Part shown: positions 552 to 42,237 of the stretch, one piece after another
Numbering within the stretch: the stretch's first letter is position 1
Layout of the letters: the number at the start of each line of letters is the position of its first letter
NCBI GenBank assembly: GCA_038231275.1
Contig: JBBRLQ010000025.1
Location: 49,973 to 113,972 of the forward strand
DNA: 64,000 nt
DNA from: Polyangiales bacterium
GTDB taxonomy: Bacteria; Myxococcota_A; Polyangia; Polyangiales; Polyangiaceae
Direction of reading: 5' to 3'
Translations under genes and position numbers: made by a program
Notes under the pieces: model-generated
Database searches by the model: none
Seen by the model: the letters and a program-made list of their open reading frames with translations, nothing else
What the model was told of the DNA's origin: nothing

Positions 552-2990
552 TCACCTGCCATTGTAGGGCATGACGGGCCGTACTTTGATCCCCGCGGCC
601 TCGAAGACTTCGATCGTTGCAGCCCACTCTTCGGGGCTTCGAGGCCCATAGCGACCAGAACCTCCGTTGATGATCGCTTCGGGTTGTGCGCCAGGTTCGT
701 GGACAAATCGCATTTCCCCGGCGGAAAACGCGCCCTGGTCCGGGGGACTCAGGTTGCTGTGGACGACGTTCCCGCGCGGGGTGGTAAACGGAATCCCTTC
801 GCGAGCGATGTTCAGGCCGCCTTGGTCCACCGTGTAGAGGTAGACGCCGTTGGGGTCTGCCCGGTTTGTGACCGTGAGATCGCCCTCCGGAACCGGGGAC
901 CTCACCACGTCGTCGGGGACGGGGCTGTCAGGACTGACGCGGAACGCTTGCGACAGCTCCTTGTTCGTGCCCTGTTCGACGAGCGCATCGAGCTCGCCGG
1001 GCGGCATGTCGGGATTCGCCTTCGTGAGGTTCGCCCGCAGCCGCGCGGCCACCGCAGCGCGCCCCTCGGCGGAGAAGAGGGCGACGTCTTCGTTCGGAAG
1101 GATCTCGCGGTTCGGCGCGCGCGGCGCGCCGCCAACGGCCTCTTGCAGCGCGTTCATGCGCGCGGCCAGCTTCGTCGGGGCGGGCGGCGTTGCCTCGGCG
1201 GCCGTAATCTCGCTGGCCTTCGGCGCCGTGGCGGCGCCCTCGCACGTCGCGCAGGCGTTTTCTTTCGCGCCTCCGCCACCGCCAAGAGCGTCCTCTAGCC
1301 CCTTCGGCACTTCGGGGAGCTTCGGTCCGATCTCGCCCTTCCAACCCGGCGGCCGATAAATCTCGTGAACGTACCCCTTGCCGTACACCTCACCGATCGC
1401 AAATTCGTCGATCGGAATCCCCTCGGGAGCCGCATCGTGAGGGAAGCGGATGACGCCCTTCTGCCCGTTGAGGCCGACTCCAGGCTCGCCCCCCAGCTCG
1501 ATGAGTCGCGCCTTGGGGATCGCGAGGACGATGCCGTCACGGTAGAACGGCGTTCCCTCGGCGAACCAGATGTTGTCCGCGTTGACACCTTGCTTGCCGA
1601 ACGCGCGGCCGGACTTGAGACCCCCCTCGAGCACACCCGGCAGCGCTTCGTCCGGAATGACCGAATAGGCCATCTCCGGGTTGACCGCCGTCGGATGCCC
1701 GTCGGCGTACAGCTGCTCGAACACTGCGTCCTGATCCGAAGCGCGTCGCACGTTGTTGGCGTTCGCGAGCATCTCTTCGGCGCTTGGCCGCGGAGTAGGC
1801 GCCACTTCTCCGGCGACGGGCTCGGGTGAACCGCCCTCGAGAAGCTTGGGGCCGGTTCCGCCCTCCAGAAGCTTGGGGCCGGTTCCGCCTTCGAGAAGCT
1901 TGGGTCCCGTTCCGCCCTCGAGAAGCTTGGGGCCGGTTCCGCCCTCGAGAAGCCGGGGTCCGCCTGTGCCGACCGGCTCGGTCCCCTTCATGACCCAGAC
2001 GCCTTCCGAGTTCTGGACCATCTCGATCGGCTCGTTCACCCGCGCCGCGGGTCCTTCGAGCATCGGCCGTGCTTCGGGCGAGAGCACTTCGACGCCGGGC
2101 TTGCCGCCGCCGGTGAACCCTTCGAGAAGCTTGCCGCCCCCCTCCATGAGCTTGCCGCCTGCCGCACCCGCGACGAGACCGCCGCTCGTATGGAAGAACT
2201 GCTCGAAGCGATGGTCGCTGTAGCCCGCGGCGCTGTCGATCGCGGCGCCGCCTACCCCGCCGAGGTACGAGCCGCCCTTGAAAATTCCGAACCCCGCGCC
2301 GAGCTGGAGTGCCCCCTTGAAGAACGCGCCGAGACCCGTGCCGATGCTGCCCGCCGTCATCCCCGCGGCGACGCCGCCCACGACCACGGTGAGCGCCGCG
2401 GCGCCGAGGCCGATCATTCCGAAGATCATTCCGACGTCGTGCAGCGCGGTGCCGATGTTGTGGAGCTTGGACGCGAACGTCTCCTCGTAAGGAACGTCGC
2501 TCGCGACCTTGGGGCCGTTCAAATACGTGTACTGCGTCTGCGGCAGGCACTGGCCGGTGCACGTGACCGTGTCCGTGTGACGCGCCGCCGGGAGCTGCCC
2601 GATGCCGATGAACTTCGCGCCCTCTTTGATCTGGCTGCTGGAGCTGCATCCGGCCGGATCGGTCATTCGCGCGGCCATCTTGTTTTCGATGAAGACGGTC
2701 TCCAAACCCTTCTTGATCGCGCCGCAGACCGAGCCGCTGACGTGATCTTCGTCGAAGTGCTCGCCGAGTCGCTCGCCGGCCCAGCCGCCCAAATAGAATG
2801 CGGACACCGCTCCAGCGCCTACGGCGACGGCCGCGAGAATGGTGAGGCTCACCGGCGCGGTGATGATGATGACCGCCGCGATGATGGCCCCGAGGATGAG
2901 CCCGCCGACGAGACCCCAGAACGCGCCCCAGCCGGACGAGTGGCTCCCGACGTTGTCCCCCATGCGCGCGGCGAAGAGGACGTCGCTCAC
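552..2990 (-). CDS. prePAAR-TMD-PAAR T6SS effector with C-terminal toxin domain(s)
   Basis: GTG at 2990 after a GAGGAG SD. N-terminal AARMGDNVGSH (prePAAR-like), hydrophobic helices, PAAR-type motifs MAARMTD and LPAARHTD...C, a second hydrophobic region, a repeat linker, then globular C-terminal domains. Confidence 0.85.
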   Translation of the reverse strand: MSDVLFAARMGDNVGSHSSGWGAFWGLVGGLILGAIIAAVIIITAPVSLTILAAVAVGAGAVSAFYLGGWAGERLGEHFDEDHVSGSVCGAIKKGLETVFIENKMAARMTDPAGCSSSSQIKEGAKFIGIGQLPAARHTDTVTCTGQCLPQTQYTYLNGPKVASDVPYEETFASKLHNIGTALHDVGMIFGMIGLGAAALTVVVGGVAAGMTAGSIGTGLGAFFKGALQLGAGFGIFKGGSYLGGVGGAAIDSAAGYSDHRFEQFFHTSGGLVAGAAGGKLMEGGGKLLEGFTGGGKPGVEVLSPEARPMLEGPAARVNEPIEMVQNSEGVWVMKGTEPVGTGGPRLLEGGTGPKLLEGGTGPKLLEGGTGPKLLEGGTGPKLLEGGSPEPVAGEVAPTPRPSAEEMLANANNVRRASDQDAVFEQLYADGHPTAVNPEMAYSVIPDEALPGVLEGGLKSGRAFGKQGVNADNIWFAEGTPFYRDGIVLAIPKARLIELGGEPGVGLNGQKGVIRFPHDAAPEGIPIDEFAIGEVYGKGYVHEIYRPPGWKGEIGPKLPEVPKGLEDALGGGGGAKENACATCEGAATAPKASEITAAEATPPAPTKLAARMNALQEAVGGAPRAPNREILPNEDVALFSAEGRAAVAARLRANLTKANPDMPPGELDALVEQGTNKELSQAFRVSPDSPVPDDVVRSPVPEGDLTVTNRADPNGVYLYTVDQGGLNIAREGIPFTTPRGNVVHSNLSPPDQGAFSAGEMRFVHEPGAQPEAIINGGSGRYGPRSPEEWAATIEVFEAAGIKVRPVMPYNGR
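1831..1965. repeat. 27-bp tandem repeat, about 5 copies, encoding (LLEGGTGPK)n in the PAAR effector
   Basis: Unit CCGCCCTCGAGAAGCTTGGGGCCGGTT repeated with synonymous variation; the last copy is degenerate. Confidence 0.95.
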
Positions 2991-3059
2991 GTGGAGCTCC
3001 TCTCGCCGAGGACGACGACGCACGCATGGAGGTGGGAGGGGGCTTGGGTCATTCGTTCT

Positions 3060-3617
3060 TCAGCGGCGACCGCCGCGGTAGCCGGGCATGGGGACGAGGG
3101 GCGGCGCGGACGGGTCTTGTGGGGTCTGACTGGGTCGCGCGACGCTGGGCGGCGGACCGCCCGACGGCACGGGCGGCGGCGTGTCGAAGCGGACCGTCTT
3201 CAGGATCTCGTCGAAGAGCGGCCGCGACGAGGCACCGTCCTTCGCGGGCGCCGTGGTCGTGAACGACGTCGCGACGCGGCCGGTCTCGATCGTGCGCTCC
3301 ACGAACGTCACGGTTTGCTCGAGCTGCCCCGTGTGACCAATCCAAGTGTACCGGAGAAAAATTGCCGGCTGCCCGCCGAGCTGGGTCTCTTTGCTCTCGA
3401 GGAGATCGAAATCCTTCAGGTGCCGTCCGAGCTGGAGGAGCTGGCGGTCGGCGTGGCTCCGCAACGAATCGGCTTCCCGAATCGCCTCGCGCGTCATCAC
3501 GAAGTTCGGCGCCGCGTCGCTAGAGGGTCCGACAGGAGCGGTGTAGGCCACGATGGTTCGGTCGACCCAGTTCGCAGGTGTTTCGAAGAAGGCATCTCGA
3601 TCTTGGTGACGCGGCAT
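3060..3617 (-). CDS. DUF1795/DcrB-like (Eag-type) effector chaperone with Pro-rich tail
   Basis: PANWVDRTIVAY...NFVMTRE...L.S.ADRQL..L pattern; GAGGAGG SD; directly upstream of a prePAAR-TMD effector. Confidence 0.8.
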   Translation of the reverse strand: MPRHQDRDAFFETPANWVDRTIVAYTAPVGPSSDAAPNFVMTREAIREADSLRSHADRQLLQLGRHLKDFDLLESKETQLGGQPAIFLRYTWIGHTGQLEQTVTFVERTIETGRVATSFTTTAPAKDGASSRPLFDEILKTVRFDTPPPVPSGGPPPSVARPSQTPQDPSAPPLVPMPGYRGGRR

Positions 3618-3817: not shown

Positions 3818-5038
3818 TCAGCGGCCGTGGATCGTAAAATACGAGAGCGGGCGCGTGTCGTTCGCGGCGTAGGTCACGAAGAGCTCACGCTTGTCGAACG
3901 GATAGACGGCGGTGGCGAGCGGTGCGTCGAAGAGGTCGACGTAGTGCGGCACACCGAGCCCGTACCAACGCGATAGGTCGTAGTGGCTCAGTTGGAACCT
4001 CGGAACGAGGATGACGCGCGGCATCAGGTGGTTCGCGCCGAGCACGGGTTCCCGGAGCTCCACCCACGAGAAGGGCCCCTCGTCGAGGAGCGCCGCGCGC
4101 ACCGAGAGGAACGGATTTTCGACGACAAGCGGGCGCGGCGCGAGCTCCACCTCGAACGTCCGGCCGATGCTCTCGACGTCGATTACCGGGAGCCCGCGAA
4201 TGCGCTCCAGCACGTCGAGAATGTCGGGGGTCAGCGTCCCCGGAACGAGCGTCTGCGGAGGGACGAACGCCTTCGCGAGGTTGTCGGCGAGGAGCGGCCC
4301 CTCCGCGTCGCGAAAATTGCGCGCGAGCGGGCCGTCGGGCGAGAGGCCGATGGCGTCGATCGCGAGCGGGAGCGGTTCGCCGTTGCGCCGGAAGATGTCG
4401 AACGCCTCGACCTGCATCCCACGAAGCCCGGGGCCGCCGATGTCAGGGCCGCCCGCGAAGAGGATCTCGTCACGGACGATGGCCTGCTCGAGCGCGGCGT
4501 GTCCCCAGCGGCGCATCAGGAATACTGCGTTGTCGTGCAAGAAGGCGGGCGAAGCCGGATCGAGCGCAGGCAGCGGGTCGGCGACCACGTTCGCGTACGC
4601 GATGGAGTGGACGAGGCGCCCCGTGAAGGCTCCGCGCGATCGCGCATCCAGTGAGATCGTGTGCGGCCCTTTGCGGCACCCGGCGCCGAAGCCGGACGCG
4701 GCGAGCTCCACGACCCAACCGGCGCGCAGGGCCTGATCGAGCAGCCGAACGAACGTCCCCGATCGCCGCGCGAGGCCGAGCGCGAGACCGACGTCCGGCG
4801 GTCCCGACGGCGCGGCGACGGGCGGGTCGGCGAGATCCCAGCGGATCGGCCTATAATTTTCGGCAGATCGTGCCTCGGCCGGCCTTCCCTGGGAGTCGAT
4901 ACGGCCGCCCGTGGCGCTGAAGTACTCGGCGCTGGGGCCGCGTGGGTTGCTGGGCTCGCCTTGTCCGCGTTTCAGCTTCAGCCGGGGGCGGCCTTCGGAA
5001 TCCGCGATGAGGCGCGGCGGCGTGCGGGGCGACCCCAT
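3818..5038 (-). CDS. Multidomain hypothetical protein: degenerate toxin-like domains plus an immunity-like C-terminal domain
   Basis: 406-aa ORF. Start supported by TGtTATCCT 7 nt upstream. Contains LVHSIAYA and IVRDEILFAGGPDIG, resembling a metallopeptidase toxin lacking HExxH. Confidence 0.6.
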   Translation of the reverse strand: MGSPRTPPRLIADSEGRPRLKLKRGQGEPSNPRGPSAEYFSATGGRIDSQGRPAEARSAENYRPIRWDLADPPVAAPSGPPDVGLALGLARRSGTFVRLLDQALRAGWVVELAASGFGAGCRKGPHTISLDARSRGAFTGRLVHSIAYANVVADPLPALDPASPAFLHDNAVFLMRRWGHAALEQAIVRDEILFAGGPDIGGPGLRGMQVEAFDIFRRNGEPLPLAIDAIGLSPDGPLARNFRDAEGPLLADNLAKAFVPPQTLVPGTLTPDILDVLERIRGLPVIDVESIGRTFEVELAPRPLVVENPFLSVRAALLDEGPFSWVELREPVLGANHLMPRVILVPRFQLSHYDLSRWYGLGVPHYVDLFDAPLATAVYPFDKRELFVTYAANDTRPLSYFTIHGR

Positions 5039-5090
5039 GCGCCGGAGGATAACAGCTGCAGACTCCGAGGGGGGAGGTTACCCTGGCCGC

Positions 5091-5684
5091 GTGAGCGCCG
5101 CCGATGACGAGGTCGACACGTCGCAGCAAGCCGGCGTCGGGCCGCTCAACTACGACGAGCTCCCCGGCCTGGAAGACATCCTGCTCGAGGACAGCCTCGT
5201 CCGCGAGATCGTCGAGTCGCCGAGCTCGCTCCGCTTCGTCCTCGCCGCCGCGCTGAAGCGGGCCCATCCCTTCTACCAGCGCCCGCGCGCCGGCGATCGT
5301 CACTGCTACCGCCCCGCGACGCTGACGTTCCACGGCGCACAAATCGTGTGGTCGAAGAAGACGACGCTCCGCTTCACCGACGCGGCCGCAGCCGTCGATC
5401 TCGGCAACATCGACACATTCGTCGCCCCACCCGAAGGCGGCTACCACCTCGAAGGGGATTTTGGCGTCGTCGACGTGCGCCGCTCGCGCGCGCCGGTCTT
5501 CACGGTCCTCGGCGCGGCACCGGAGGAGCGCGCATACTTGCGCGAGGCGATCTCGGCGTGGGTCGCCCACCGTCCCCCGACGCTCGAGCGCCCCGCCGGG
5601 ATGGCCGGTGCCGACGAGGGGCGCGACGGAGTGGAGCACGGCCACCTCCACCCCCACGGCCACCATCACCACCATCGGCACTGA
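5091..5684 (+). CDS. Orphan immunity-like protein with His-rich C-terminal tail
   Basis: YDELPGL...LEDS.V..I...HP.Y..P..G..HCY...D.GNID...LEGDFG pattern, which I recall from genes next to polymorphic toxins. Ends HGHLHPHGHHHHHRH. GTG start with TACCCT 6 nt upstream. Confidence 0.6.
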   Translation: MSAADDEVDTSQQAGVGPLNYDELPGLEDILLEDSLVREIVESPSSLRFVLAAALKRAHPFYQRPRAGDRHCYRPATLTFHGAQIVWSKKTTLRFTDAAAAVDLGNIDTFVAPPEGGYHLEGDFGVVDVRRSRAPVFTVLGAAPEERAYLREAISAWVAHRPPTLERPAGMAGADEGRDGVEHGHLHPHGHHHHHRH

Positions 5685-5693
5685 GCCCGAGCG

Positions 5694-6122
5694 ATGACGC
5701 GGCACGTCTTCGACGACACGACGCTGGAGTGCGGCGACGACTTCGTCCTCACGACGATCGTCGCGCAACGCGCGAAAAAGGGCGATTTCGCCCCAAATTT
5801 GGTGCTGACACGAGGCCCCCTTCGCGACGAGGAGACCCTCGAGACCTACGTCGCCCGCCAGCTCGTGGAGCTGGCCAAGAGCCTGAAGAGCTTCAAGCTG
5901 CACGGGCGCACCGAAGTAGAGCTCGCGGGCCGACCGGCCCGTCGCATCGCGTGCGGATGGCAAGGCACGCAGGGTCACGTCGAGCAACGCATGACGATGG
6001 TCGCGATCGACGGGCGCGTCCTCACGTTCACCGTCACCGTGCCAAAGGCCAAGGCCGACGAGCTCTTTCCGCTGTTCGACGGCATCCTCGCGACCGTCGC
6101 CATCGGCGCGATCGCCGGCTGA
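5694..6122 (+). CDS. Second DUF1795/DcrB-like chaperone
   Basis: APNLVLTR...ETLETYVARQLVELAK.L..F; visibly paralogous to 3060-3617. Confidence 0.75.
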   Translation: MTRHVFDDTTLECGDDFVLTTIVAQRAKKGDFAPNLVLTRGPLRDEETLETYVARQLVELAKSLKSFKLHGRTEVELAGRPARRIACGWQGTQGHVEQRMTMVAIDGRVLTFTVTVPKAKADELFPLFDGILATVAIGAIAG

Positions 6123-12279: not shown

Positions 12280-12305
12280 GAGTCCCCGGAGCGAGCACCT
12301 AGAAG

Positions 12306-15742: not shown

Positions 15743-15770
15743 AGACCTCCATCGGTCGCGGAGGGCTGCG

Positions 15771-29115: not shown

Positions 29116-30195
29116 TTACGGCATCCTCGAGTCGGCGGGGCGGTCCTCGTCGAGGATCGTCGGGCGCGCGTTGGTCATGTCGTCGCTCATTACGAAGCGG
29201 GCGGTCATGGGCTTGCCGCTGGTGGGGCGCAGGGTGGTCGTGACGCCGAGGCGGGCGCCGCGCTCGACTCCGAGCTCGAAGCGCGGCGCGTCGTGCTCTG
29301 CAAGCGTCACCTCGCACTCGATCTCGAGGACGCCGCGCGAGAACTGATCGATGACCTTGCGCAGCGTCGGGTGCAGCCGTCCGCCCGGCATGAGCCCCTC
29401 GAAGGTTTCGTAGTCCACGGGGCCGATCCCGACGCGGAAGCGGCCCGACCGATCGATGACGGAGCGCCCGATCGTCAGATCCATCCCGAGCATGCTGTTC
29501 TGCGTGCCGAGCTTCGCGATCTGATCGTCGTTCAACATCACGCGACGCGCGATGAAGCTCTTCGTGGTGATCCCGGCGCCCGGAAACAGGCGCTCCAAAA
29601 TGATCTGGAGCGAGCGCGCCGGCCTCGTCTTGATGGCCAGCAGCGGCGCGAGCGCGAGCAAGCTGAGCGGCGGCAGACCGTCCTTGGGCGGCGCGACGGC
29701 ATCGACGCCCACGAACGACAGCGCGCGTCGCGTGAAGGGATCGCTCCCGTCGAGCCGAAATCCCGCGGCAAAACGGTACTTTTTCCACGCTCGAAAAAAG
29801 AGCGACAGGAGCCGATGGTGGAAGACGTCGTAGAACGCCTTGAGCGACTTCTCGTCCGAGCGCTCGGCGTCGATGACCTCTTCGCTGATGAACGACGCGA
29901 GCGGCGACACGGCGCCGATGAGGCCCATGAAGTTCGAGCGGATCTCGGAGAAGGGCACGCCGTCGCGGATCACGCGCGGTGTGATCGACGTGATGTCGGC
30001 CGAGTGGAAGATGAGGTCCGGATCGTGCACGAAGCGGATCGACTCGCGGCGCACCGGCCCGAGGTTCCCCACTGGGATCGCGTGCGGCGCGGTCCGCTGC
30101 AAGAGCTGCACGGCCCGGAAGAAGCTGAACTTCCAGGGCTCCGTCGCCAGCTCTTGGATCAGAGCAGCGTCAGATTTCCCGTGCGTGGCGGCCAT
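29116..30195 (-). CDS. tssG: T6SS baseplate subunit TssG
   Basis: PWKFSFFRAVQLL, FMGL.G..SPL, FYDVFHHRLLSLFFRAW.KYR; directly downstream of tssF. Confidence 0.93.
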   Translation of the reverse strand: MAATHGKSDAALIQELATEPWKFSFFRAVQLLQRTAPHAIPVGNLGPVRRESIRFVHDPDLIFHSADITSITPRVIRDGVPFSEIRSNFMGLIGAVSPLASFISEEVIDAERSDEKSLKAFYDVFHHRLLSLFFRAWKKYRFAAGFRLDGSDPFTRRALSFVGVDAVAPPKDGLPPLSLLALAPLLAIKTRPARSLQIILERLFPGAGITTKSFIARRVMLNDDQIAKLGTQNSMLGMDLTIGRSVIDRSGRFRVGIGPVDYETFEGLMPGGRLHPTLRKVIDQFSRGVLEIECEVTLAEHDAPRFELGVERGARLGVTTTLRPTSGKPMTARFVMSDDMTNARPTILDEDRPADSRMP

Positions 30196-31925
30196 GCGAA
30201 CCGGACCTTCGAGTTGACGCCGTGGATCGTGGTCTTGGAGAACGAGTTGAGGGACACGTAGCTCGAGTAGAGCTGCTCGAGGACCGCCGAGAACAGGTAC
30301 AGATCGCCGTCGCCGATGAACGCGCTCTCTTCGATGTCGATATCGAGAGAGACGCCGCGCACGAGCGAGCCGCGGAAGAGGCGCTCGCTGGGCGTCACGC
30401 GGATGTCCTGCACGGCGGCGATGCGCAGCTCATTCGCGCGCGCCGCTTGGCGATCGACGAGCGCGTGGAGGTTGTACACGTCGAGGACGGCCTTCAGGAC
30501 CTGCAGCTCGGCGAGCGAACGCAGACCCATCGCCGCGTGGGCCACGACACGCCACTGAAGCTCGCGCCCGAGCGGCGCCGACACGTGCTGCGTCACCGCC
30601 AAGATGTTCTTGAACGTCGCCGACGATGGCGAGCTCGGCGTCGGTACGCAGATCTCTCCCGCGCGGAGCACGTTCGCCAGCTTCCCGTTCGTCGCGAGGA
30701 GATCGACCGACACGACGTCGGCGTCGGGGAGCACGCCTGCGTCTTCCGGCGTACCGAACGAGAGCATCGTGTCGACCCCGTCGGCCACGACGCTCGGGTG
30801 CAAGTGCATCGTGTAAAACGTGCGCGTACTGTCGGTGGAGTTCTCCGCGTGGGAGAAATCGTAGAAGGCCGGAATCACCACGCGATCGGTCGTCCCCAGC
30901 GGGATCGTCATCACGCGCTCGATCGCGTACACCTCCGCGTGCCCCGGCGGCAGCCCGGCGGGCCTCACCAAGAACTCTTCGCGCGCGACGTTGAGCCGGA
31001 TCGGCTCCGCGCTCGTCTCGAAGATGTTCACGACCGGCACGCAGTGGAGCTTCACCGCCTCGTGCATCGACTGCGGCGCGTCCTTGTACGGCGCGTCGAA
31101 GCGAAGGCCGAGCACGAACGTCTGCAGGTCCTTGCCGATCTCCTGCGCGCGGAGGAGGCCCGCCACGTCGACGAACGCGAACTTCTGCGGGATGACGTAG
31201 TACTCCTCGAGGAGCCGGTAGCCGGGGAAGGCCATGCGCCCGAACGGAAGGAGCGCCTCGTCGTCGTGGAAGCCCGCGTGCGAGAGCGCGCGCTTTCCGA
31301 GCGAGATCTCCTTCGTCTTTCCGGGAGCACTTTCGGTGAACAGCACGACGTCGTCGAGGTGCTCGTGGATCCACATGAGCAGCCCGAGCTGCGAGCGCTG
31401 ATCGCCGGCGAGGTAGAGCCGCGTCTTCTCGCCCGCGACCGCCGAGAGCTGTGCGCCGCCGAGGAGGCGAAACGTGATGCGGAGCATCTGCTTGCCGCGC
31501 GGCAAGAGCTCGAGCCGGATGTCGTCGATCGCCCACGGTGCGAGCTCGCACGGCCACACCGACTGGAAACGGCATGACGTCCCGTCTACCTCGACGCTCG
31601 CGAACTCCGCCCCCTTCGGCACTACCGTGCGCTCGCGGAGGACACCTGGAAGCGGCGTGATCTCGAGCATCGTCGCCGCAGGCAGCGGACGCAGGAGGTG
31701 CGGGAAGAGGAGCGACGCCATCCCGTGGATGACTTCGGGGATCTCGTCGTCGAGCTTCTCCCGGATGCGCCCGGTCAGGAACGCGACGCCCTCGAGCAGC
31801 CGCTCCACGTCGGGATCGCCGCCGCGGTCCGCCAGCATCGGCGCCAGCGCCGGATACGCCCCCGCAAACTCCTTGCCGAGCTCGCGCAGATAGACGATCT
31901 CGTCTTGGAAATATTTGTTGAACAC
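30159..31925 (-). CDS. tssF: T6SS baseplate subunit TssF
   Basis: YFQDE..YLRELGKEFA..YP..A, DPDVERLLEG.AFLT.RI..KLDDE.PE, C-terminal YVSLNSF...WPPR.G. Confidence 0.96.
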   Translation of the reverse strand: MFNKYFQDEIVYLRELGKEFAGAYPALAPMLADRGGDPDVERLLEGVAFLTGRIREKLDDEIPEVIHGMASLLFPHLLRPLPAATMLEITPLPGVLRERTVVPKGAEFASVEVDGTSCRFQSVWPCELAPWAIDDIRLELLPRGKQMLRITFRLLGGAQLSAVAGEKTRLYLAGDQRSQLGLLMWIHEHLDDVVLFTESAPGKTKEISLGKRALSHAGFHDDEALLPFGRMAFPGYRLLEEYYVIPQKFAFVDVAGLLRAQEIGKDLQTFVLGLRFDAPYKDAPQSMHEAVKLHCVPVVNIFETSAEPIRLNVAREEFLVRPAGLPPGHAEVYAIERVMTIPLGTTDRVVIPAFYDFSHAENSTDSTRTFYTMHLHPSVVADGVDTMLSFGTPEDAGVLPDADVVSVDLLATNGKLANVLRAGEICVPTPSSPSSATFKNILAVTQHVSAPLGRELQWRVVAHAAMGLRSLAELQVLKAVLDVYNLHALVDRQAARANELRIAAVQDIRVTPSERLFRGSLVRGVSLDIDIEESAFIGDGDLYLFSAVLEQLYSSYVSLNSFSKTTIHGVNSKVRFAWPPRTGNLTLL

Positions 31926-31954
31926 TGGCGCGAACGGGGGCGATCGGCGTGAAT

Positions 31955-32356
31955 TTACTTCACCGAGATCTTACGCGACATCTCCATGGTGGTCTCGAAT
32001 TTCATGGGCGTTTTTCCGTTCTCGGTCACCAGCGACGCGGCGATCTCGAAGCGGATGATGAGGTCGTCGTTGGGGATGAAGTTCACCCGCACGCCCGTGA
32101 GGCGGGGCTCGTAGGCCTCGATCGTGTGCTTCAGCGCCCGCTGCATCGTCGCGATGGCGTCGGGGAAGTTGTGCAGCATCTCGGTGACGTCGGGAATCCC
32201 GTAATCCGGCAGCGTCGCCATCGAGCCTTGCCGCGTGGACAGCATGCCCTGCAGGTGCTCGAGCAGGTTCTCGCGAAGCTCGCTCGCCGGGATGTTCCTA
32301 CGAGCCGTCGCCAGCTCGGGGTGCCTCACGCGGGAAAGGAGGGATGCGCGCTTCAT
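31955..32356 (-). CDS. tssE: T6SS baseplate subunit TssE (gp25-like)
   Basis: HL...L.TRQG......DYGIPD...I..YEPRL..VRV. Confidence 0.92.
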   Translation of the reverse strand: MKRASLLSRVRHPELATARRNIPASELRENLLEHLQGMLSTRQGSMATLPDYGIPDVTEMLHNFPDAIATMQRALKHTIEAYEPRLTGVRVNFIPNDDLIIRFEIAASLVTENGKTPMKFETTMEMSRKISVK

Positions 32357-32394
32357 GCTGTTTCCGACGATGCTACAACAGCCAACCGTGCTCC

Positions 32395-32432
32395 AAAGAA
32401 AAAGGCCCCGCTACGGTCATCGCAGCGGGGCC
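32395..32432 (-). terminator. Intrinsic terminator after hcp
   Basis: Minus strand reads GGCCCCGCTGCG-ATGAC-CGTAGCGGGGCC then TTTTTCTTT. Confidence 0.88.
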
Positions 32433-32454
32433 AAATCCTTCGAACGGGTCGGAC

Positions 32455-32973
32455 CTAGACGGTCGCTTCCGCGTTCCAGTCGTCGACCGCGGTCTTGCTG
32501 GCGAGGATGTGCTCCATCTGGATCTTGTTGAAGGCGATCGAGATGTCCTCGAGCTCCATCGTGTCGTAGATTCCAGGAGACTTGGCGTTCGAGCCCGTTG
32601 CCTCGTCCTCGTTGGTGCCCGTGTACTGGCGGACCTTGACGATGTGCGAGTCGGTCAGCGTGATGCGGTAGTAGTCCTCGTCCTTACCGGTCTTGTCCTT
32701 CTGTTGGAAGGTGATGGTGAAGGTCGAGATCTTTTCGTTGCTCGTGCAGGCCGACCAGAACTGAACCGAAGTGGCGTCCCACTCCTTGGTCAGGATGATG
32801 TTCTTGTGCTGCCGCTTCCCCTTGGCCTTGTTCGTCGAGACGTCGAACGCAGCAAGAACTTCGTACTGGAATCGGATGCAGGGGAACTCGTCCTTGTGCT
32901 TGTCGCGCGGGCTGGTTCCAGCCGATGCACCCTGCTTGTCGAACTTGCACTTCGCATTAAATTCGTATGCCAT
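32455..32973 (-). CDS. hcp: T6SS tube protein Hcp (TssD)
   Basis: KQG...G.S.......GKRQHK.I..TKEWD..S...; YY.I.L.D..I; E.ISI.F.KI; GGAGG SD; lies between tssC and tssE. Confidence 0.92.
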   Translation of the reverse strand: MAYEFNAKCKFDKQGASAGTSPRDKHKDEFPCIRFQYEVLAAFDVSTNKAKGKRQHKNIILTKEWDATSVQFWSACTSNEKISTFTITFQQKDKTGKDEDYYRITLTDSHIVKVRQYTGTNEDEATGSNAKSPGIYDTMELEDISIAFNKIQMEHILASKTAVDDWNAEATV

Positions 32974-33102
32974 TTGTCTGCCTCCAGGTCTTGGCGAGCG
33001 CTTCCGGCGACTAGCGCCTTTCCCGTTTCAAATTAAGTCTACCCGACTGGGTGGCTTTTTCTCCCCTCATCGTTGTCCCCCGAACGGGCGACGAGGGAAG
33101 CA

Positions 33103-33128
33103 GATCCCGCGGCTAACTCCGCGGGATC
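33103..33128. repeat. Perfect 10-bp inverted repeat in the tssC-hcp intergenic region
   Basis: GATCCCGCGG-CTAACT-CCGCGGGATC. Confidence 0.85.
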
Positions 33129-33171
33129 CGGTCGAACGACGCCACCAGGCGCATCGGGGAGCCAGGAAACG

Positions 33172-34656
33172 TCAGGCCTTATCGAGCTTGCCGACGAGGG
33201 AGAGGGTGAAGAACGCGCCCATGTACTTGAAGTGCGGGCGCACCTTCATGTCGACTTTGTACCAGCCGGCGTTCCCCTCGACGTCCTCGACGGTGATCGA
33301 CGCGGCGCGGAGCGGGCGCTTACCCCTGACCTCCGCCGATGCGTTGTCCATGTCGACGACGTACTGCATGATCCACTTGTTCAGATCGTGCTCGAGATCG
33401 CCGCGCTCCTTCGTGGAGCCGAGGGCCTCGCGCTGGAGCACTTTGATGTAGTGCGCGAGACGGCTGATGATGAACATGTACGGCATCTGGGTGCCGAGGC
33501 GGTAGTTGAGCTCCGCTTCGCGTCCCTCCGCCGATTGGCCGAAATACTTCGGCTTTTGGCAGCTGTTCGCGGAGAAGAACGCGGCGTTGTCGGAGTCCTT
33601 GCGGAAGGTGAGGGCGATGAACCCCTCCTCCGAGAGCTCGAACTCGCGACGCTCGCTGATCATGACCTCGGTCGGGATCTTCGTCTGGATCTCGCCCATC
33701 GCCTCGTACTGGTGGAGCGGCAAGTCCTCGACCGCGCCGCCCGCCTGGGGTCCGATGATGTTCGGGCACCAGCGGTACTTGGCGAAGCTGTCGGCGATGC
33801 GCGTCGCGAACGCGTACGTGCAGTTTCCCCAGAGGTAGGTCTCGTGCTGGCCGACCGTCTCCTCTTGGTAGTTGAACGAGCGGACGGGCACCGTGGCCGG
33901 GCCGAACGGGATGCGCAGCAGGAACCGCGGCATCAGGAGGCCGACGTAGCGTGAGTCCTCGGACTCGCGGAAGGATTGCCACTTGGCGTACTGAGGGCCC
34001 TCGAAGATGGCCTTCAGGTCCTTCAAGTTCGGCAGCTTCATGAAGTCTTTGTCGCCGAAAAACTGCGGTGCCGCGGCGGCGAAGAACGGCGCGTGCGACA
34101 TGGCAGAGACGGCGGCGCACTTCTGGAGGAGCAGGATGTCCTGCGGGCCGGGGCCGAACTCGTAGTTCGCGAAGATGGCGCCATACGGCTTGCCGCCGAA
34201 CTGCCCGTATTCCGCGGTGTAGACGGTCTTGTAGAGACCGCTCTTCATGATCTCGGGCGCGTCCTCGAAGTCGTTCAGCAAGTCTTCCTTGCTGCAGTTG
34301 AGGAGCTCGCAGTGGATGTTCTCGCGGAAATCAGTGCGGTCGACCGTGAACTTCAGGCCGCGCCACGCGCTCTCGAGACGCTGGAAGTCCGGGTGGTGGA
34401 GGATGGCGTCGAGCTGCTTCGAGATCTTCCCGTCGATCTCCGCGATGAGCGCGTCGGCGAAGGCGCGATCGACCTTCTCGCGGCGACCCGGTGCGAGGAG
34501 CTCCGAGATGAACGCCTGAACTCCCTTGCGGGTGACGTCGTATCCTTCATCGGTCGGCTTCAGCTGGGTTTCGCTGAGGATGTCGTCGAGCAGCGAGGTC
34601 TCGGTGGTGGTCTCTGCGGCGGCGGCTGCACCAGGCGCGGCTTTCGTGTCGGCCAT
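33172..34656 (-). CDS. tssC: T6SS contractile sheath large subunit TssC (VipB)
   Basis: ILHHPDFQRLESAWRGL, EYGQFGG.PYG, PRFLLR.P, YLWGN, SRLAHYIKVLQRE. Confidence 0.98.
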   Translation of the reverse strand: MADTKAAPGAAAAAETTTETSLLDDILSETQLKPTDEGYDVTRKGVQAFISELLAPGRREKVDRAFADALIAEIDGKISKQLDAILHHPDFQRLESAWRGLKFTVDRTDFRENIHCELLNCSKEDLLNDFEDAPEIMKSGLYKTVYTAEYGQFGGKPYGAIFANYEFGPGPQDILLLQKCAAVSAMSHAPFFAAAAPQFFGDKDFMKLPNLKDLKAIFEGPQYAKWQSFRESEDSRYVGLLMPRFLLRIPFGPATVPVRSFNYQEETVGQHETYLWGNCTYAFATRIADSFAKYRWCPNIIGPQAGGAVEDLPLHQYEAMGEIQTKIPTEVMISERREFELSEEGFIALTFRKDSDNAAFFSANSCQKPKYFGQSAEGREAELNYRLGTQMPYMFIISRLAHYIKVLQREALGSTKERGDLEHDLNKWIMQYVVDMDNASAEVRGKRPLRAASITVEDVEGNAGWYKVDMKVRPHFKYMGAFFTLSLVGKLDKA

Positions 34657-34657
34657 C

Positions 34658-35161
34658 TCAGCTACCCTCTCCTTCGTCGCCCTTGATGCCGAGCTCCTTC
34701 ACGAGCTTCTCGCGTTGGCCGCTGTCGTTCAGGAGCGCCTGGATCTTGCGCTTGAACGCCGGCACGTTGCCGAGCGGGCCCTTCAGGGCGGTCAGTGCCT
34801 TGCGTAGCTCGAGGAGCCTCTTCAGCTCGGGGACCTGCTCGGCGACCGACTCGGGACCGAAGTCCCCGAGGTTCTTGAACTTCAGGTTGACGGAGAGGAA
34901 CGCGTCCTTTTCGCCCGAGAGTTGGTCGGGCACCGACATGTCGAGCGAGAGGTTCTGCTCGGCGAGGACCTGCTGGAAGTTGTCCTTGTCGATGTTGATC
35001 GGCTTGCGATCTTCCAGCGGGCGCGGATCGGGCTTGCCGGTGTAATCGCCGATGAAGAGCATCTGGAGGGGGAGCTCGACCTCTTCACGCGCGTCGCCGA
35101 TCGCCGGCTTGTACACGACGTTGATGCGCTCTTTCGGAGCGACTGATCCTTGTTTCGCCAT
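34658..35161 (-). CDS. tssB: T6SS contractile sheath small subunit TssB (VipA)
   Basis: SVAPKERINV.Y, ELPL, IDKDNF, DF.PE.VA.QVPEL..LLELR.AL..LKGPLGNVPAF. Confidence 0.97.
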   Translation of the reverse strand: MAKQGSVAPKERINVVYKPAIGDAREEVELPLQMLFIGDYTGKPDPRPLEDRKPINIDKDNFQQVLAEQNLSLDMSVPDQLSGEKDAFLSVNLKFKNLGDFGPESVAEQVPELKRLLELRKALTALKGPLGNVPAFKRKIQALLNDSGQREKLVKELGIKGDEGEGS

Positions 35162-35221
35162 TCGAGTTCCTCTTTTGACTACGCGTGCCTAAGCCGCGTT
35201 CTCCCTGATTGCCCTGGCCGC

Positions 35222-35237
35222 TGCATTAGTGGCGCCT
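35222..35237 (-). promoter_or_regulatory. Possible sigma-54 (-24/-12) promoter for tssB-tssC-hcp
   Basis: Minus strand AGGCGCC-ACTA-ATGCA gives GG-N10-GC; imperfect match to TGGCACG-N4-TTGCW. Confidence 0.3.
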
Positions 35238-36855
35238 AGAGACCCATGCGAACCGCCAAGGCAGGATCCAGGCGACATATCTTCTCAATTATGACCGCCT
35301 CCCGGTGCTCCGCGTCAACAAATGGGGGATTTGTTGCACGCAGAGAAGACAGGAGCGCAGCATACACGGACACACACAACTCGGGATCCCACGTCTCGAG
35401 CGAGCGGACGTCGATCTGCCGGAGGAGCCCTTCGAGGATGGGGCGTGACACGCCCGGCTTCTGCGCTTCGAGGGCCAGCTTCGCCGCGTCGAGCTCGAGT
35501 CGGAAGGCCGTTCGCGCGTCGGGGGAGCGGCGCGCGAGCTGCACCATGAGGCCCACGCCGTCGCCGATGCGGCCCGCCGCGATCGCCTCGCGCGCGACCG
35601 CGAGCTTTGCTTCGCGATCGGCCTTGTCGGCCTCGAGGGCCGCGTCCGACGCGCCGCCGCCGCCGCCCTTGCTGCGCAGCGCGTTGAGCCACTCGGAGGT
35701 GTCGGGCCCCGCGAAGGGCATGCCGCCGGAGAACTGGAGGTTCACGAGGTTCGGAAAGCGATCGACGAAGCCGAGGGTCATGTGGGCGACGACCGCCGCC
35801 GCGGGCTTCGAGCTGCCCCCGATCGTGTCGAGGGCGCGGGCGACCCAGAAGTGGAGATCGAGCCAGAACGGGTACTCGCCGACAGCGCCCTCCGCCTGAC
35901 GCAGGAGGTCGGCCCAGCGCGCGTTGCCGGCGTGGGCTTGGAGGTCCGCGACGACGCCGGGATCGGGCGGCGGCACGAACGTCGTGCTGCCTTGCGCCTC
36001 GGGCAGCTCGCCGATCGTGAGCCACGCGCCCGTGCGCGAGAGGAAGTACGCCCATGCGCGCGCGGGGTCCTGCTGGAAGAGGGCCCGCGCGGCGCTCAGG
36101 ATGGCCTTCTCGCACTTGCTGAGCGCGGCGTCGACGTCGGCGACGCTCGAGACGGTGCCGACCTGAGGCGGCGCGACGCGGATGACCTGCCCAGAGCCCC
36201 CGCCCTGCGACGCACCGGACGTGCCCGCCATCGTGCGGTCGGGCGACTCGGTCGCAGGGCCTCCCGCTTCGTCGGCAGGCGTGGGCTCGGGCGGCTTGGG
36301 GACGCTCGCGAGGCGCGTCGCGATGAGGCGCCGAACGACGCCGAGGCCAGGATGCATCTCGCCGAGCTGCTTGCCGAGGATGTCGTCCAGATCCTTGAAA
36401 AGGATCTCGCACGCAGCGAGCGAATCGCCGTCGGAGATCGTGACGTCCTTGTTTTCTTGGGCGTTCGCGACTTGCTCGATGAGCCAGCCGAACAGATTTG
36501 CGCGCGCGCGCGGGCGGCGCTCGGGGAACATCGTGTCCCAGTATTTGTCGCAGTGCGCGCGCAGGACGACGAGCCCGTCGGCGAGGCCCGTCCAGCTCTG
36601 ACGGTGCATGCGCGCGACGCAGTTCCACGTCGCGAGGCGCATGTCTTTCGTGCGCGTCGAGAGGAGCTTGGAGCTGATCGTGGCGACGACCTCCCAGTTG
36701 GGCTGCCCCGTCACTGCGCCGAGCTTCTCGACCTCCGCCTTGACCTTCTCGAACTCGGTGTCGAAGGAGAGATCGTCGCCGCCCGGCTTCGCGCCGGGTA
36801 TCGGCGCCGTCAGCGCGCTGTTGCGCGCTTCGATCGGTTCGACGACGTCGGCCAT
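35236..36855 (-). CDS. tssA: T6SS TssA (ImpA_N + VasJ-like)
   Basis: L..PI.G..PGG.D.....F; W..V......LL..RTKD.R.A.W; PFWLDL; L..W.P. Confidence 0.88.
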   Translation of the reverse strand: MADVVEPIEARNSALTAPIPGAKPGGDDLSFDTEFEKVKAEVEKLGAVTGQPNWEVVATISSKLLSTRTKDMRLATWNCVARMHRQSWTGLADGLVVLRAHCDKYWDTMFPERRPRARANLFGWLIEQVANAQENKDVTISDGDSLAACEILFKDLDDILGKQLGEMHPGLGVVRRLIATRLASVPKPPEPTPADEAGGPATESPDRTMAGTSGASQGGGSGQVIRVAPPQVGTVSSVADVDAALSKCEKAILSAARALFQQDPARAWAYFLSRTGAWLTIGELPEAQGSTTFVPPPDPGVVADLQAHAGNARWADLLRQAEGAVGEYPFWLDLHFWVARALDTIGGSSKPAAAVVAHMTLGFVDRFPNLVNLQFSGGMPFAGPDTSEWLNALRSKGGGGGASDAALEADKADREAKLAVAREAIAAGRIGDGVGLMVQLARRSPDARTAFRLELDAAKLALEAQKPGVSRPILEGLLRQIDVRSLETWDPELCVSVYAALLSSLRATNPPFVDAEHREAVIIEKICRLDPALAVRMGL

Positions 36856-36856
36856 C

Positions 36857-37864
36857 TCACGCTTCGAGGAGCCCGAGCAGCTCGGCGACCGGCGCGTCTC
36901 CCCCCTCGAGCAGCATTCCGAGCGGCCTCGGAAAGCTCGAGATGAGCTGCGGCCGGTGCTCGTTCGCGGTGACGCCCAGGAGGTTCACGACGTGATCACT
37001 GTCGGGATCGGGGGACCACAGCTCGGCGAGCGCGCTCGGCGTGACTTGGCCCAGCTGAATCAAGATGGAGCCGTCGTCGCCGTCGAACGACCAGAAGCAC
37101 GTCGGCGTCGTCGCCCGCCACCTGGCGACGCGGCGCACGATGTCGAGCCAGAACACCGCCGCAGCGATCCCCGCTGAACCGAGGCGCAGCCGCACCGCGA
37201 GCGGCGTCGTGAGGTTCTCGCGCTCGCCGAACGGACCGAGCGCCTCGCGGATCGCTTTCAGCGCGCCCAGCGGCGCGTCCGATTCGGCGCTCCCGTAGAT
37301 GGCCGCCCAGGCGACGCTCACCGGCGTGCTCCGCGTCCACGCGTCGTATTCCGTGGCCACCGCGTCGGTGTAGACAGACGGCAGCGCGACCCGCGCGATG
37401 CGCTCCTGGTACTCCGACGCGCTCGTCACCGCGTTTGCGTCAACGGACGCCGCGGTGGCCGACTCGAGGAAATCACCGAGTAGCAGCGGCAAGAGGTGGG
37501 GGTACGGCGAGACGTCGCGCTCGCCGATCTGCGCGAACACGACGAGCGGGAACTTACGACCGACCGAGTCGTGGCTCGGCTTCAGGACTCCGACGAGCAG
37601 CCCGCCGTCGCGCACCGGCGGCTTGAACACGAACGCGTGGATGGGGCCTTTGCCATAGACGCCGGGCCACGCCGCCGCGTGCTTCTTCTCGCCGGCGGCC
37701 ATGCCCGCCTCGAGCCACTGCTCGAAGGCCGGGTGCGGCTTGGCCCCCGCGCGGACGAAGTCGCCCATCTTGGGGACCTTGCCGTACGCGCCGACGGCCA
37801 CTGGCACCGGCGGCAGCGTCGACGCGGCGTCCTTCTTGTCTTTCTTGAAGAACGGGAACGGCAA
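36857..37864 (-). CDS. tagF: T6SS-associated TagF (DUF2094)
   Basis: YGKVP..GDFVR, W...G, GV..PS.D.VGR.FPL. Confidence 0.9.
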   Translation of the reverse strand: MPFPFFKKDKKDAASTLPPVPVAVGAYGKVPKMGDFVRAGAKPHPAFEQWLEAGMAAGEKKHAAAWPGVYGKGPIHAFVFKPPVRDGGLLVGVLKPSHDSVGRKFPLVVFAQIGERDVSPYPHLLPLLLGDFLESATAASVDANAVTSASEYQERIARVALPSVYTDAVATEYDAWTRSTPVSVAWAAIYGSAESDAPLGALKAIREALGPFGERENLTTPLAVRLRLGSAGIAAAVFWLDIVRRVARWRATTPTCFWSFDGDDGSILIQLGQVTPSALAELWSPDPDSDHVVNLLGVTANEHRPQLISSFPRPLGMLLEGGDAPVAELLGLLEA

Positions 37865-37867
37865 GCG

Positions 37868-40800
37868 TCACCTGACGCCGACGGCGATGACGCGCGGACA
37901 GGTGTACGGCTTGAACACGCGCGATTTGCGCGTGATGTACGACGGGAACACGCTCTCGTCCTTCGTCGGCCGAATGTCCACCTTGACCACCCCCTGCTGC
38001 GAGCGCAGCACCCACGTCACCACGATCGTCTGAGGCGCGCCGCGCTTGCCGCCTTCGGTGCCGGGCTCGATCTTGCTCGCGGCGTCGAAGAGGCGGAAGA
38101 GGCCCCACTCGCCGGGCCGCAAGATCTCCTCGTCGAGGCTGTTGTAGCCGTGGATCTTCACGCGGCTCTGCTCGCTCTTCGGATCCTTGGCGGGCCACTG
38201 GACGGTGATCCACTCCTCGGGCTCGTTCTTGTACGTGTGGCTCACGCCGTTGATGTCGAAGGTGACGTCGGCGATGTTGTCCGAGATGCTGTGGAGGTTC
38301 AGATCGAACTCCACGAGCGGCTTGTCGCTCTTCTCGGGGAACGTCGCCTTCGAGATCTCGAGCCCGCGGTCGTAGCACTTGAGGAAGCCGCCGGTGTAGC
38401 CGGGCGTATGGCCGAAGCGCGTGCCCGGCACGAAGTGATCGCCGACCTTGTCGATCGAGCCCTTGAGGCTCGTATCGTAGAAGCCGAAGAGGACACCGCC
38501 GGGTCGGAAGAACTCGGTGTAGTCCTGGACCTTGACGTCCTTCCAGGTGTCGGCGAACGGGTAGCCGTCCTCGAGCTTGCTGTGCCATTTGGCCCAGACG
38601 TCGGACTCCCAGTTGCCGCCCTCGGTGCCGATGGCGCTGGTTTTGTACCCGGCCCACGCCATCTCCAGCGGGTTCAAGAGGAGCGGCGAGATGATGGGGC
38701 GCGTGAAGCCGCTCTGCGACGGCGACAGGAGCTCGTTGGTCGTCCGGATCGCGTTCTCGAACGCGGCGGTCACGGCCTTTGGATCGACGCCCTTGCCCTT
38801 GCTGTCGCGGAGATCGGTGAGGATGGCGACGACGTTGGCGACGATGCGATCCTGGTAGTGCGCGAGCTGCGTGTCCGACGGCTTGTTCGGATCGACGGGG
38901 CCGGGCTTCACGCCGAAGCGAACCATCGGCTGGAACGCGATCTCGGGCGGCATCGGCTGGCGGGCGGCCGGCAAAGGATCGATCAGACCCGCGTCGACCA
39001 GGATTTGCGTCGACGGGTTGTTCTGCAGGATCTTTCGCTTCGCTTCGTTCTCGAGAACCTGCTCGGCGAACTCGCTCGCGGGCGGGTCGAGGCGCGTATT
39101 TTCCTCGAGCGTCCGCTCTAGACGCAGGTACGGCCACGGCACCTCGCTCAGCGCCTGAAGCTCCTCGAGCGCCTCGTCGTTGCTCGTCGGCTTGCGAACG
39201 TCGAGGTCCTTGAGGAAGTCCGCCCACGCGCGGATGTAGGCGTTGAAGTAGCGCTCGCGAAGCTCTTTGAGCTGCTTCTCCATCTGCGCGAGGCCGAGCT
39301 GATCGGTCTCGCCGAGGACCCAGCGCTCGAGCGCGAGCTGCTTCGCGCGGTCTTTCCCGAGCCGATCGCGCACGTACGTCTCCCAGCCGATCTTCGTGAA
39401 CGCGCCGGTGACGACGATCTCGGGGCTGCTCTTGGAGGTGACGTACGAGCCGAACGCTGTGTTGAGGAAAATAGACTCACGCGTGATCGGCGGGACGTTC
39501 TCGTTCGCGTCGCGGATGAGGCCGCTGTACTCGCGATCGGCCGCCGAGACGCGCTTGAGGAAGGACCTCACGCGGTTCTTCAGGTTCTCGTCGCACGTCC
39601 ACGGAGGGATCTCCTTCCGCTTCATGAGCTCGAGGTAGTAGTTCACGTGCGGGCGGAGGACTTCCTTCTCGCCCTTGCCGCTCGCGCCGAGCGCGCGGCC
39701 CCAGCCGTCGGTGAGCGCGCCGGTCTCCCACTCGACGTCGAGACGATCGACGTCGCACGCCTGGAGGTAGGCCTTCAGGCGGTTGAAGTAGGTGTTGTAC
39801 TCGTCGGTGGTGAGCGAAGTCTTGTCGACGATCGCGCGGAGCTCGTCCTCGATCCGGCCCTTGGTGGGCCGAGCGAATCCCTCTTGGAGGTTCGAGATGT
39901 AGACGGCGCGCGTGGGCTCGTAGAGATCGTCGCCGACGTACATGCCCCAGCGGTACGCGATGGGCGCGCCATCTTGCTTCCACGCGTCGAGTTGCTTCAG
40001 CTGCGCGCGCAGATCGTCGAAGCGGCGGACCTTGTCGACGATCGTCATCGTGCGATCGTTCCATGGCACCTTGGTCGCCTCTGCCGCGACCTGCTCGGTC
40101 TGCGCGAGGAGCTGGCGGTTCTTGAGGAACGTGCACGACGACGGCAGGACGAGGATGCTCGCGAGGAGGAGGCACGCGATCGCGAAGGCGATGCGGTTGA
40201 TCAGCTGGCGGCGCAGCTCACCCTTGGTGCGACCGGCGTAGTTCTGATCGGGGAAGACGATGCGGCGGAAGACGTCGGTGACGAAGTAGCTCTTCGACTC
40301 GGTGGTCTGCTGCGGCGGCTGGATGGGCTGGGCGCTTCCGATGTTGAAGACGCGAAGCATTCCGCCGATGACGCGATCGATCGGGCTGCCCTCTTGCGTG
40401 CCGCTCGTGAAGTACACGCCGCGGAGGATCGGGGTCTCCTGGAACGCGTTCGGCGCGAAGAGCGACGTGACGAAGTCGGAGAGGTTCTCCCGGAGGGACT
40501 GGAACTCGAGCGGGAAGTGGAAGACGGCGCGGCGCGCGTCGGGCGAGCGCTCGTTGCCGATGCGGCGGACGGCGCGCGCGTGGAGCGTCAGCGCGAGCTG
40601 ATCGAACTCGTCCTCGAACTGGGCGGCCGCCGCCTGCTGCATCGGTCCCATGAGCGGGAACGTCACGCCCCACGTCTGCGAGCGCTCGCTCTTGCGGAGA
40701 TCGTTCCAGAACTCCACGAAGCCGGCGACGAGATCCATCTTGGTGAAGACGACGTAAATCGGCACCACCATGCGCAGGCGCGTCATCACCTCGTCGATGC

Positions 40801-41482: not shown

Positions 41483-41489
41483 GGCGCTC

Positions 41490-42182: not shown

Positions 42183-42237
42183 GCCCGCCTCCTTTCGCTC
42201 ATTCCGAATCCATCAAATGCGTATAGGAACAAGGTGA

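Follow-up and report, generated by a model that had tools for sequence, protein, structure and literature searches.

A conserved fusion of two toxin-derived domains lacking catalytic motifs with an immunity-type domain beside a type VI secretion system: a possible docking subunit

The fusion gene and its surroundings

Within the window, i.e., the whole stretch of 64,000 nucleotides that was analyzed, one gene encodes a protein of 406 amino acids (P0001) with an N-terminal (N), a middle (M) and a C-terminal (C) domain, and a divergent neighbor, here called Y, lies next to it. The features concerned are the following:

552..3023, minus strand: PAAR effector with a variable tip; a different tip is found at the same site in genome G236
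3060..3617, minus strand: DcrB-family gene downstream of the fusion gene
3818..5038, minus strand: fusion reading frame P0001, 406 aa; putatively inactive nuclease-like tip, putatively inactive zincin and zincin-immunity-type domain
3821..4237, minus strand: C domain (aa 268-406), belonging to the family whose genes directly follow those of intact zincin tips
4253..4801, minus strand: M domain (aa 80-262), zincin-fold relative of the HExxH...E domains at VgrG, PAAR and RHS tips, catalytic motif lost
4412..4444, minus strand: motif DIGGPGLRGxQ (aa 199-209) of the M domain
4502..4510, minus strand: RWG (aa 177-179), at the position of the DEG third-ligand motif
4595..4609, minus strand: HSIAY (aa 144-148), at the HExxH position
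4826..5029, minus strand: N domain (aa 4-71), related to a PT7-like polymorphic toxin tip but truncated, with S36 and Y62 replacing both His of the tip
5046..5054, minus strand: extended -10-like element
5091..5684, plus strand: Y, 197 aa with a His-rich tail, homologue of the gene after intact N-type toxin tips and predicted partner of the N domain
5694..6122, plus strand: DcrB-family gene immediately following Y; a DcrB gene likewise borders Y in the subfamily II genomes described below
29116..46933, minus strand: core cluster of a type VI secretion system (T6SS) with TssG, F, Hcp, C, B, A, TagF, M, L, K and ClpV

The reading frame of P0001, described as uninterrupted in a first-pass annotation made from the letters alone, is indeed open over 406 codons and has coding-type base use (GC3 of 0.86 as compared to GC2 of 0.51), and contigs of run X1, which may be the source sample, showed no differences to it over most of its length. 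The extended -10-like element lies 6-7 nt before the ATG, also occurs at locus L001 and is accompanied by no obvious ribosome-binding site; a leaderless start of the transcript is possible. The genome holds no second copy of the gene. Eight homologues with 42-60% identity were found among 7999 scored candidates, and a search of 1.84 billion cluster representatives returned 38 matches. Eighteen full-length family sequences align end to end with open frames at 31-60% identity, and the N-domain profile detected the family in 6 of the 201 host-family genomes, in three genera, these carriers being kin and hence not independent observations. Subfamily I, to which P0001 belongs, has the architecture N-M-C; in subfamily II an N-M protein has C either fused to it (G1003, P0051, P0061) or encoded by the adjacent downstream gene (G280), and fused (G1003) and adjacent (G280) forms of M and C occupy one site within one genus. 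P0001 matched no family in Pfam, NCBIfam or PADLOC (the PADLOC profile search returned no family for eight proteins), and sequence matches to the known T6SS adaptor and chaperone families DcrB/Eag and DUF2169 were absent in Pfam and NCBIfam. With the whole model Foldseek returned nothing at E 0.001, and the one cluster obtained from the ESM Atlas, at 0.78, is unnamed and no more than a lead. Neither an output domain, a signal peptide or a membrane helix nor a carrier domain (VgrG, PAAR, RHS) was detected in P0001.

On the strand of the fusion gene the DcrB gene and then the PAAR effector gene follow, and the divergent run consists of Y, DcrB, three VgrG genes, DUF2169 and a gene for a 1735-aa TPR protein; FHA and kinase-like genes lie nearby. 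The PAAR effector (552-3023) contains a short tandem repeat of the GPKLLEGG type, and its C-terminal domain may have a counterpart in the PAAR protein of G236. The three tandem VgrG genes (9155-18533) carry an M35 peptidase, an M91 peptidase and an unnamed tip, each followed by a small, likely immunity gene. A 611-aa protein encoded at 6215-8050 has no match in Pfam, NCBIfam or PADLOC, is 72% identical in L001 and has a likely counterpart elsewhere in the G236 locus. Positions 1-189 of the window are the end of a gene for a TPR protein of about 480 aa (G000:C25:48716-50158), and in G280 and G1003 this gene adjoins that of subfamily II; the TPR protein was rejected as a dedicated partner, being present in 65 of 201 family genomes.

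Descent of the three domains and family-wide loss of catalytic residues

Comparison of the M domain with intact HExxH domains by hhalign gave a probability of 99.7% (E 1.3e-26) and placed HSIAY on HExGH and RWG on DEG, and the model of P0001 showed zincin-level fold matches over residues 78-240. The distant matches of the protein are HExxH...E domains that end VgrG or PAAR proteins or stand alone, with weak scores for DUF6782. HExxH was found in none of the 29 M domains of the family as compared to 34 of 34 other relatives, and a tree of 63 rows, built without fragments (P0011, L046, L060, L063, L065), weak matches (L051-L058) and L067/L068, separates the 29 motif-less domains from the 34 HExxH domains at a branch with support of 99/95. 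The motif-less clade sits on a long branch, distant from all sampled intact toxins. Of the M domains in 18 full-length members, 12 retain the first His, three the catalytic Glu, one the third Glu and none the second His; subfamily II has RExxR in 6/7 M domains and keeps the third Glu in 7/7. Compared with intact zincin tips, M thus shows homology and a likely cognate immunity partner directly downstream, here fused, and lacks HExxH, the third Glu and a terminal position on a VgrG, PAAR or RHS carrier. The motif [GA]P[GS]LRGxQ is present in 23/23 subfamily I proteins, LRGxQ occurs in 0/14 intact zincins, and subfamily II does not share the motif; the invariant GPGLRGxQ may represent a new binding surface. 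For the intact zincin family, the toxicity of which is presumed, no named Tox-MPTase model matched and a PDB sequence search gave nothing significant.

Searched with the broad C profile A5, 16 of 21 loci have a C-type gene immediately after the intact zincin tip, as compared to 10 of 21 with the fusion-only profile, the latter count being given alongside as A5 included some neighbors later scored with it. These loci have an intact zincin near the end of the reading frame and DNA downstream; the misses were L050, L059, L062, L064 (one genome) and L022, and two contig ends, eight weak matches, one partial sequence, the fusion itself and two giant repeat proteins had been dropped beforehand. The C profile of the fusions matched a profile built from neighbors only with 98.2% probability (E 6.4e-14; cross-controls 0.3% and 1.5%), and the neighbor-only profile also detected L060 and L069, neither of which was used to build it. 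Because of this synteny with intact zincin tips, C is likely the cognate immunity domain of the zincin. The C domains of the carriers group apart from the immunity genes of intact toxins (SH-aLRT 94, unstarred) and share a changed loop. The best fold match of C was YjgB (4YGT; Z 8.0, rmsd 3.8, 125 aligned), which indicates no function, and a PDB sequence search found no significant match. The AF2 model of P0001 reached a pTM of 0.78 with residues 1-73 unconfident, and M and C are therefore predicted to form one body, with M packed against C in a fixed arrangement. In the same genome, contig C28 carries an intact zincin gene (L027) and its immunity gene followed by DcrB and PAAR, which is the order of fusion, DcrB and PAAR in the window. 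The zincin gene is co-directional there (L027:7232-8286), whereas in G236 the intact zincin gene (L107:8144-9363) is inverted and divergent from the immunity-DcrB-PAAR operon; these two genomes, members of one genus, differ by inversion of the toxin gene.

Separately built profiles of the N domain and of toxin tips aligned with 98.9% probability (E 2.5e-17), with Y62 at the terminal His. The N profile detected 14 proteins that end in an N-type domain, including RHS-HINT, filamentous haemagglutinin and WXG/T7SS proteins, and the domain is therefore regarded as a polymorphic toxin tip. Both His are kept in 14/14 tips as compared to the first His in 16/26 and the terminal His in 0/26 N domains of the family. 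Moreover, N lacks the first helix and strand of the tip, its matches beginning at positions 69-73 of the 132 in the profile. When modeled, an intact tip matched PT7 (8OWU) with Z 10.7 and an rmsd of 1.6 over 76 aligned residues (next match 4.2; Foldseek E 1.1e-4); both His align, and by our reading the first His of the tip corresponds to PT7 H47. N was thus found to share homology and a PT7-like fold with these tips and to lack their two His and N-terminal helix. No Pfam or NCBIfam toxin domain matched the tips, Ntox30 (PF15532) gave no signal anywhere, controls included, and neither plasmid searches nor a PDB sequence search of the tip returned anything, or anything significant, respectively.

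According to the available parts of the reports, PT7 needs metal for its DNase activity (10.1101/2021.10.19.465003) and attacks rRNA as well (PMC13675652), and its single mutants retain some DNase activity in vitro (10.1101/2021.10.19.465003). In view of the latter, the absence of enzymatic activity in N and M is something we infer from the lost residues. That the domains are still active, with N as a weak nuclease or nucleic-acid binder or M with a new metal-free activity, and with C and Y as ordinary inhibitors, appears very improbable. The activity kept by the PT7 mutants in vitro would fit this alternative, as would the conservation of K23, R19 and R46 in N, the H-x-H kept in many members and the retention of inhibitors, which is expected of an active toxin; however, the polar residues that are retained differ between members, P0001 has neither His, the first helix and strand of the tip are missing from N, and the two subfamilies have no alternative catalytic set in common.

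Taken together, the origin of the three domains and the loss of catalytic residues throughout the family are well supported by these profile and motif comparisons. They agree with the first-pass annotation in its three-part layout, each part having aligned separately with toxin or immunity profiles in hhalign, in its reading of the middle part as a toxin-like metallopeptidase domain with HSIAY for HExxH and the downstream Glu missing, and in the likeness of the N-terminal part to nuclease-toxin tails with Tyr in place of His; the immunity-like nature ascribed to the C-terminal part has become likely. The absence of the first tip His (S36) and the divergent neighbor Y had been overlooked.

The divergent neighbor, selection and the type VI secretion system

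A homologue of Y was found directly after intact N-type tips in 4/4 loci whose sequence extends past the tip (L025, L031/L036, L032, which is weaker, and L081, with a remnant; the weak N matches L033 and L034 were not counted), and Y is a homologue of the likely immunity protein of the tip. Y is present in 6/6 carrier genomes, and in 6/301 genomes of the order overall, namely three carriers, two genomes with intact tips and one with an orphan. It is divergent from and adjacent to the fusion gene in G000, G236, G951, G952 and the metagenome locus L028 (L001 and L084, apparently a single locus, were counted once; L029 has no upstream DNA). In G280 and G1003 it is unlinked to the motif-less gene and follows TPR and DcrB among orthologues of the T6SS accessory genes of the window; it adjoins DcrB in both subfamilies, after VgrG-TPR-DcrB in G1003. 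The six Y proteins associated with carriers, unlinked ones included, cluster together (98/94), and the second Y of G280 falls outside this group. Co-retention and co-descent of both immunity-type partners with the fusion family are thus apparent from gene content and trees.

A complex prediction for N (residues 1-74) with Y gave an ipSAE of 0.77 as compared to 0.00 for the best of three controls, with a pLDDT of the partner of at least 80 and at least 91% of contacts shared between runs; the ipSAE mark is reached by 116/157 solved and 2/215 mismatched pairs, counts that are only roughly valid with our own alignments. Binding of Y by the N domain is therefore a prediction of the model, and since close cousins of true partners also pass the mark (10/12 colicin pairs), the result could reflect ancestry rather than present binding. 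Y had no sequence match to any chain of 8OWU at E 10 and none of significance in the PDB, and a likeness of its fold to the solved PT7-PIM7 pair is possible. The His-rich tail of Y (5630-5684) occurs in the subfamily I loci of the window, L001, L017, L028 and L117; Y proteins beside intact tips and in subfamily II lack it, and metal binding by the tail is possible.

No intact tip was found in 5/5 carriers searched (genomes 83-97% complete), in which Y accordingly stands as a putative orphan immunity gene. It is nevertheless unlikely that Y and C are simply stored immunity, which would protect against incoming toxins with the inactive domains as stabilizing placeholders until an intact toxin displaces them. 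The retention of Y in these five carriers is in line with such a store, as are orphan Y genes elsewhere (L078, L080, L082, L083) and the circulation of intact zincin tips in the class. Contrarily, a bound placeholder would compete with the incoming toxin, the C domains of the carriers stand apart from the immunity genes of intact toxins and have a changed loop, the intact zincin of the same genome already has its own immunity gene (L027), and Y is fixed in a T6SS accessory operon and not in an immunity array.

As judged from codon changes, the family is under purifying selection. The dN/dS of P0001 versus L001 was 0.44, similar to the neighboring genes Y (0.39) and DcrB (0.38), with dS probably underestimated at this GC content and values of 0.63-0.67 for more distant pairs. 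In one related strain, 24 synonymous and one non-synonymous changed codons were counted among the differences listed (40 of 47); runs X3 and X4 of this comparison belong to one study. Simple decay of a toxin cassette, with fusions arising by chance read-through, is hardly credible. The M-C order does equal that of the ancestral toxin-immunity operon, and in G192 a single stop separates an intact pair that otherwise shares one frame, but 18 full-length open frames at such divergence, the 24:1 excess of synonymous changes and three congruent trees all speak against decay, and we conclude that domestication has taken place. The view of the first-pass annotation that the gene is not a decayed one is upheld by the conserved loss of the motifs, the full-length frames, the synonymous excess and the congruent trees. 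It had asked for catalytic loss and dN/dS to be compared across orthologs and named active HExxH orthologs with a fusion unique to this genome as the contrary outcome; HExxH in 0/29 M domains, a dN/dS of 0.44 and a family in 6/201 genomes show that such an outcome does not apply.

Because Y is fixed beside DcrB, TPR and VgrG genes, P0001 may be an accessory docking piece of the T6SS effector-loading apparatus, and a non-toxic docking subunit of the adjacent T6SS is the explanation that we tentatively favor, with confidence slightly short of even. Following this, M would be capped by the fused immunity-type C domain and the nuclease-like N tip would dock on Y, encoded divergently next door, yielding a soluble complex of the two proteins P0001 and Y. 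The retained function would be the tight binding between toxin and immunity protein without the catalysis, and the N-Y link might tether the capped M-C module and its invariant motif to the effector-loading proteins of the DcrB/TPR/VgrG/PAAR type. Against docking it has to be considered that the putative link to the T6SS comes from gene neighborhood, that in subfamily II the motif-less gene is located away from the T6SS cluster, flanked by a kinase-like gene and the widespread TPR gene, and that 16/26 N domains keep the first His and 12/18 M domains the first zinc His. Since only 6/201 family genomes in three genera carry it, the family is no general T6SS component.

Two further functions had been proposed together with domestication when the sequence was first annotated, namely those of a decoy and a sensor; a domesticated protein fits best, and the decoy is weakened. 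As a decoy effector, injected P0001 would titrate the immunity proteins of a rival, which would then be poisoned by toxins of its own or of the attacker, with the fused C and Y shielding the producer's own immunity. The co-orientation of the gene upstream of DcrB and PAAR in the window and in G236, an intact zincin-immunity pair in the producer that would need shielding (L027, L107) and the toxin folds retained by the inactive domains are compatible with this role. However, as the protein's own immunity-type partners are predicted to occupy both inactive surfaces, the motif-less M clade sits on its long branch without tracking any sampled intact toxin and a carrier domain is missing, the proposal loses ground; in addition, C is covalently attached in most members, and G280 has neither an intact zincin nor an intact tip. 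We therefore hold a decoy to be improbable. An attack sensor, in which an intact toxin strips off Y or C and the exposed invariant motif signals to T6SS assembly or a kinase, with counter-attack as the outcome, is also rather improbable. Two independent bait-like pairs predicted within one complex, the invariance of the motif in subfamily I and its absence from intact zincins, and the FHA and kinase-like genes close by are what one might expect of a sensor, but P0001 has no output domain, signal peptide or membrane helix, subfamily II does not share the motif, and kinase genes are frequent in genomes of this kind.

More speculatively, and possible although on the unlikely side, the protein could be a two-bait device built from captured toxin-immunity pairs, in which the inactive toxins hold the antidotes as a latch on the T6SS; either an incoming intact toxin would trip the latch and elicit counter-attack, or the injected inactive domains would strip a rival of its antidotes, upon which the rival succumbs to its own toxins.

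Relation to known systems and significance

For the N-type tips, the close solved system is PT7 with its immunity protein PIM7 (PDB 8OWU; 10.1101/2021.10.19.465003; PMC13675652), the likeness being the match of the intact-tip model (Z 10.7, rmsd 1.6). The intact tips are about 20% identical to PT7 and have Lys at its D37, and the N domain of P0001 differs further in being N-terminal, truncated and without His, and its neighbor Y in having no sequence match to the 8OWU chains. M is a clear homologue, with the same fold, of the HExxH...E zincins at VgrG, PAAR and RHS tips (weak Pfam DUF6782; cf. the Tox-MPTase clades in the accessible text of PMC3482391), and the immunity-type family downstream of those tips is that of the C domain; P0001 has lost HExxH and the third Glu, has no carrier domain and has the immunity domain fused to it.

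Retention of a toxin-type enzyme domain after catalytic loss is also described, in the accessible sections of PMC3482391, for the inactive transglutaminase domains of polymorphic toxins and the inactive GHH nuclease of teneurins, which are proposed there to be binding modules. These are single inactive domains on RHS proteins, and a retained immunity partner is not mentioned in those sections, whereas P0001 combines two such domains with both partners. The polyimmunity proteins and orphan immunity genes treated in the same sections (PMC3482391) resemble the present case in that immunity-type genes are kept without an intact cognate toxin. A polyimmunity protein consists of several immunity domains and no toxin domain; P0001 has one immunity-type domain fused to two toxin-derived domains, is not an array and is conserved rather than variable.

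The putatively inactive zincin of the fusion can furthermore be set beside a distant case of reuse. The N-terminal domain of anthrax lethal factor is a catalytically dead zincin used for docking. Its fold was matched (3KWV_C; Z 5.8, rmsd 5.3, 114 aligned) at a score that is generic for zincins; no sequence link was found, and lethal factor belongs to another system and has no fused immunity domain. In the titles and abstract openings returned by searches of the open-access literature, no natural fusion of a dead toxin with its cognate immunity protein is described, and P0001, read as a domesticated conflict protein, has an architecture and a retention of partners that were not met with there.

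Toxin-immunity pairs are usually viewed as disposable ammunition with fast turnover; here, two of them appear to have lost their activity, become partly fused and remained under selection in three genera, and the second putative antidote gene, Y, is fixed in the T6SS cluster even where it is unlinked from the motif-less gene. The family thereby offers a traceable case of weapons becoming machinery in which intermediates persist, split versus fused and with the third Glu kept versus lost, and P0001 allows a direct test of decoy and sensor roles for pseudo-effectors. Additionally, two toxin-immunity families are defined, the PT7-like tip with Y and the zincin tip with C, for which no Pfam or NCBIfam match above cut-off was obtained except for the borderline DUF6782. 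T6EC12 (10.64898/2026.09.28.754971) was considered as a relative of M and rejected, being an M35-type effector of another family according to the available part of that report. Two giant Burkholderia proteins (L067, L068), one of which is annotated with an LWXIA domain, contain three or more internal HExxH copies that belong to the zincin family of the intact tips.
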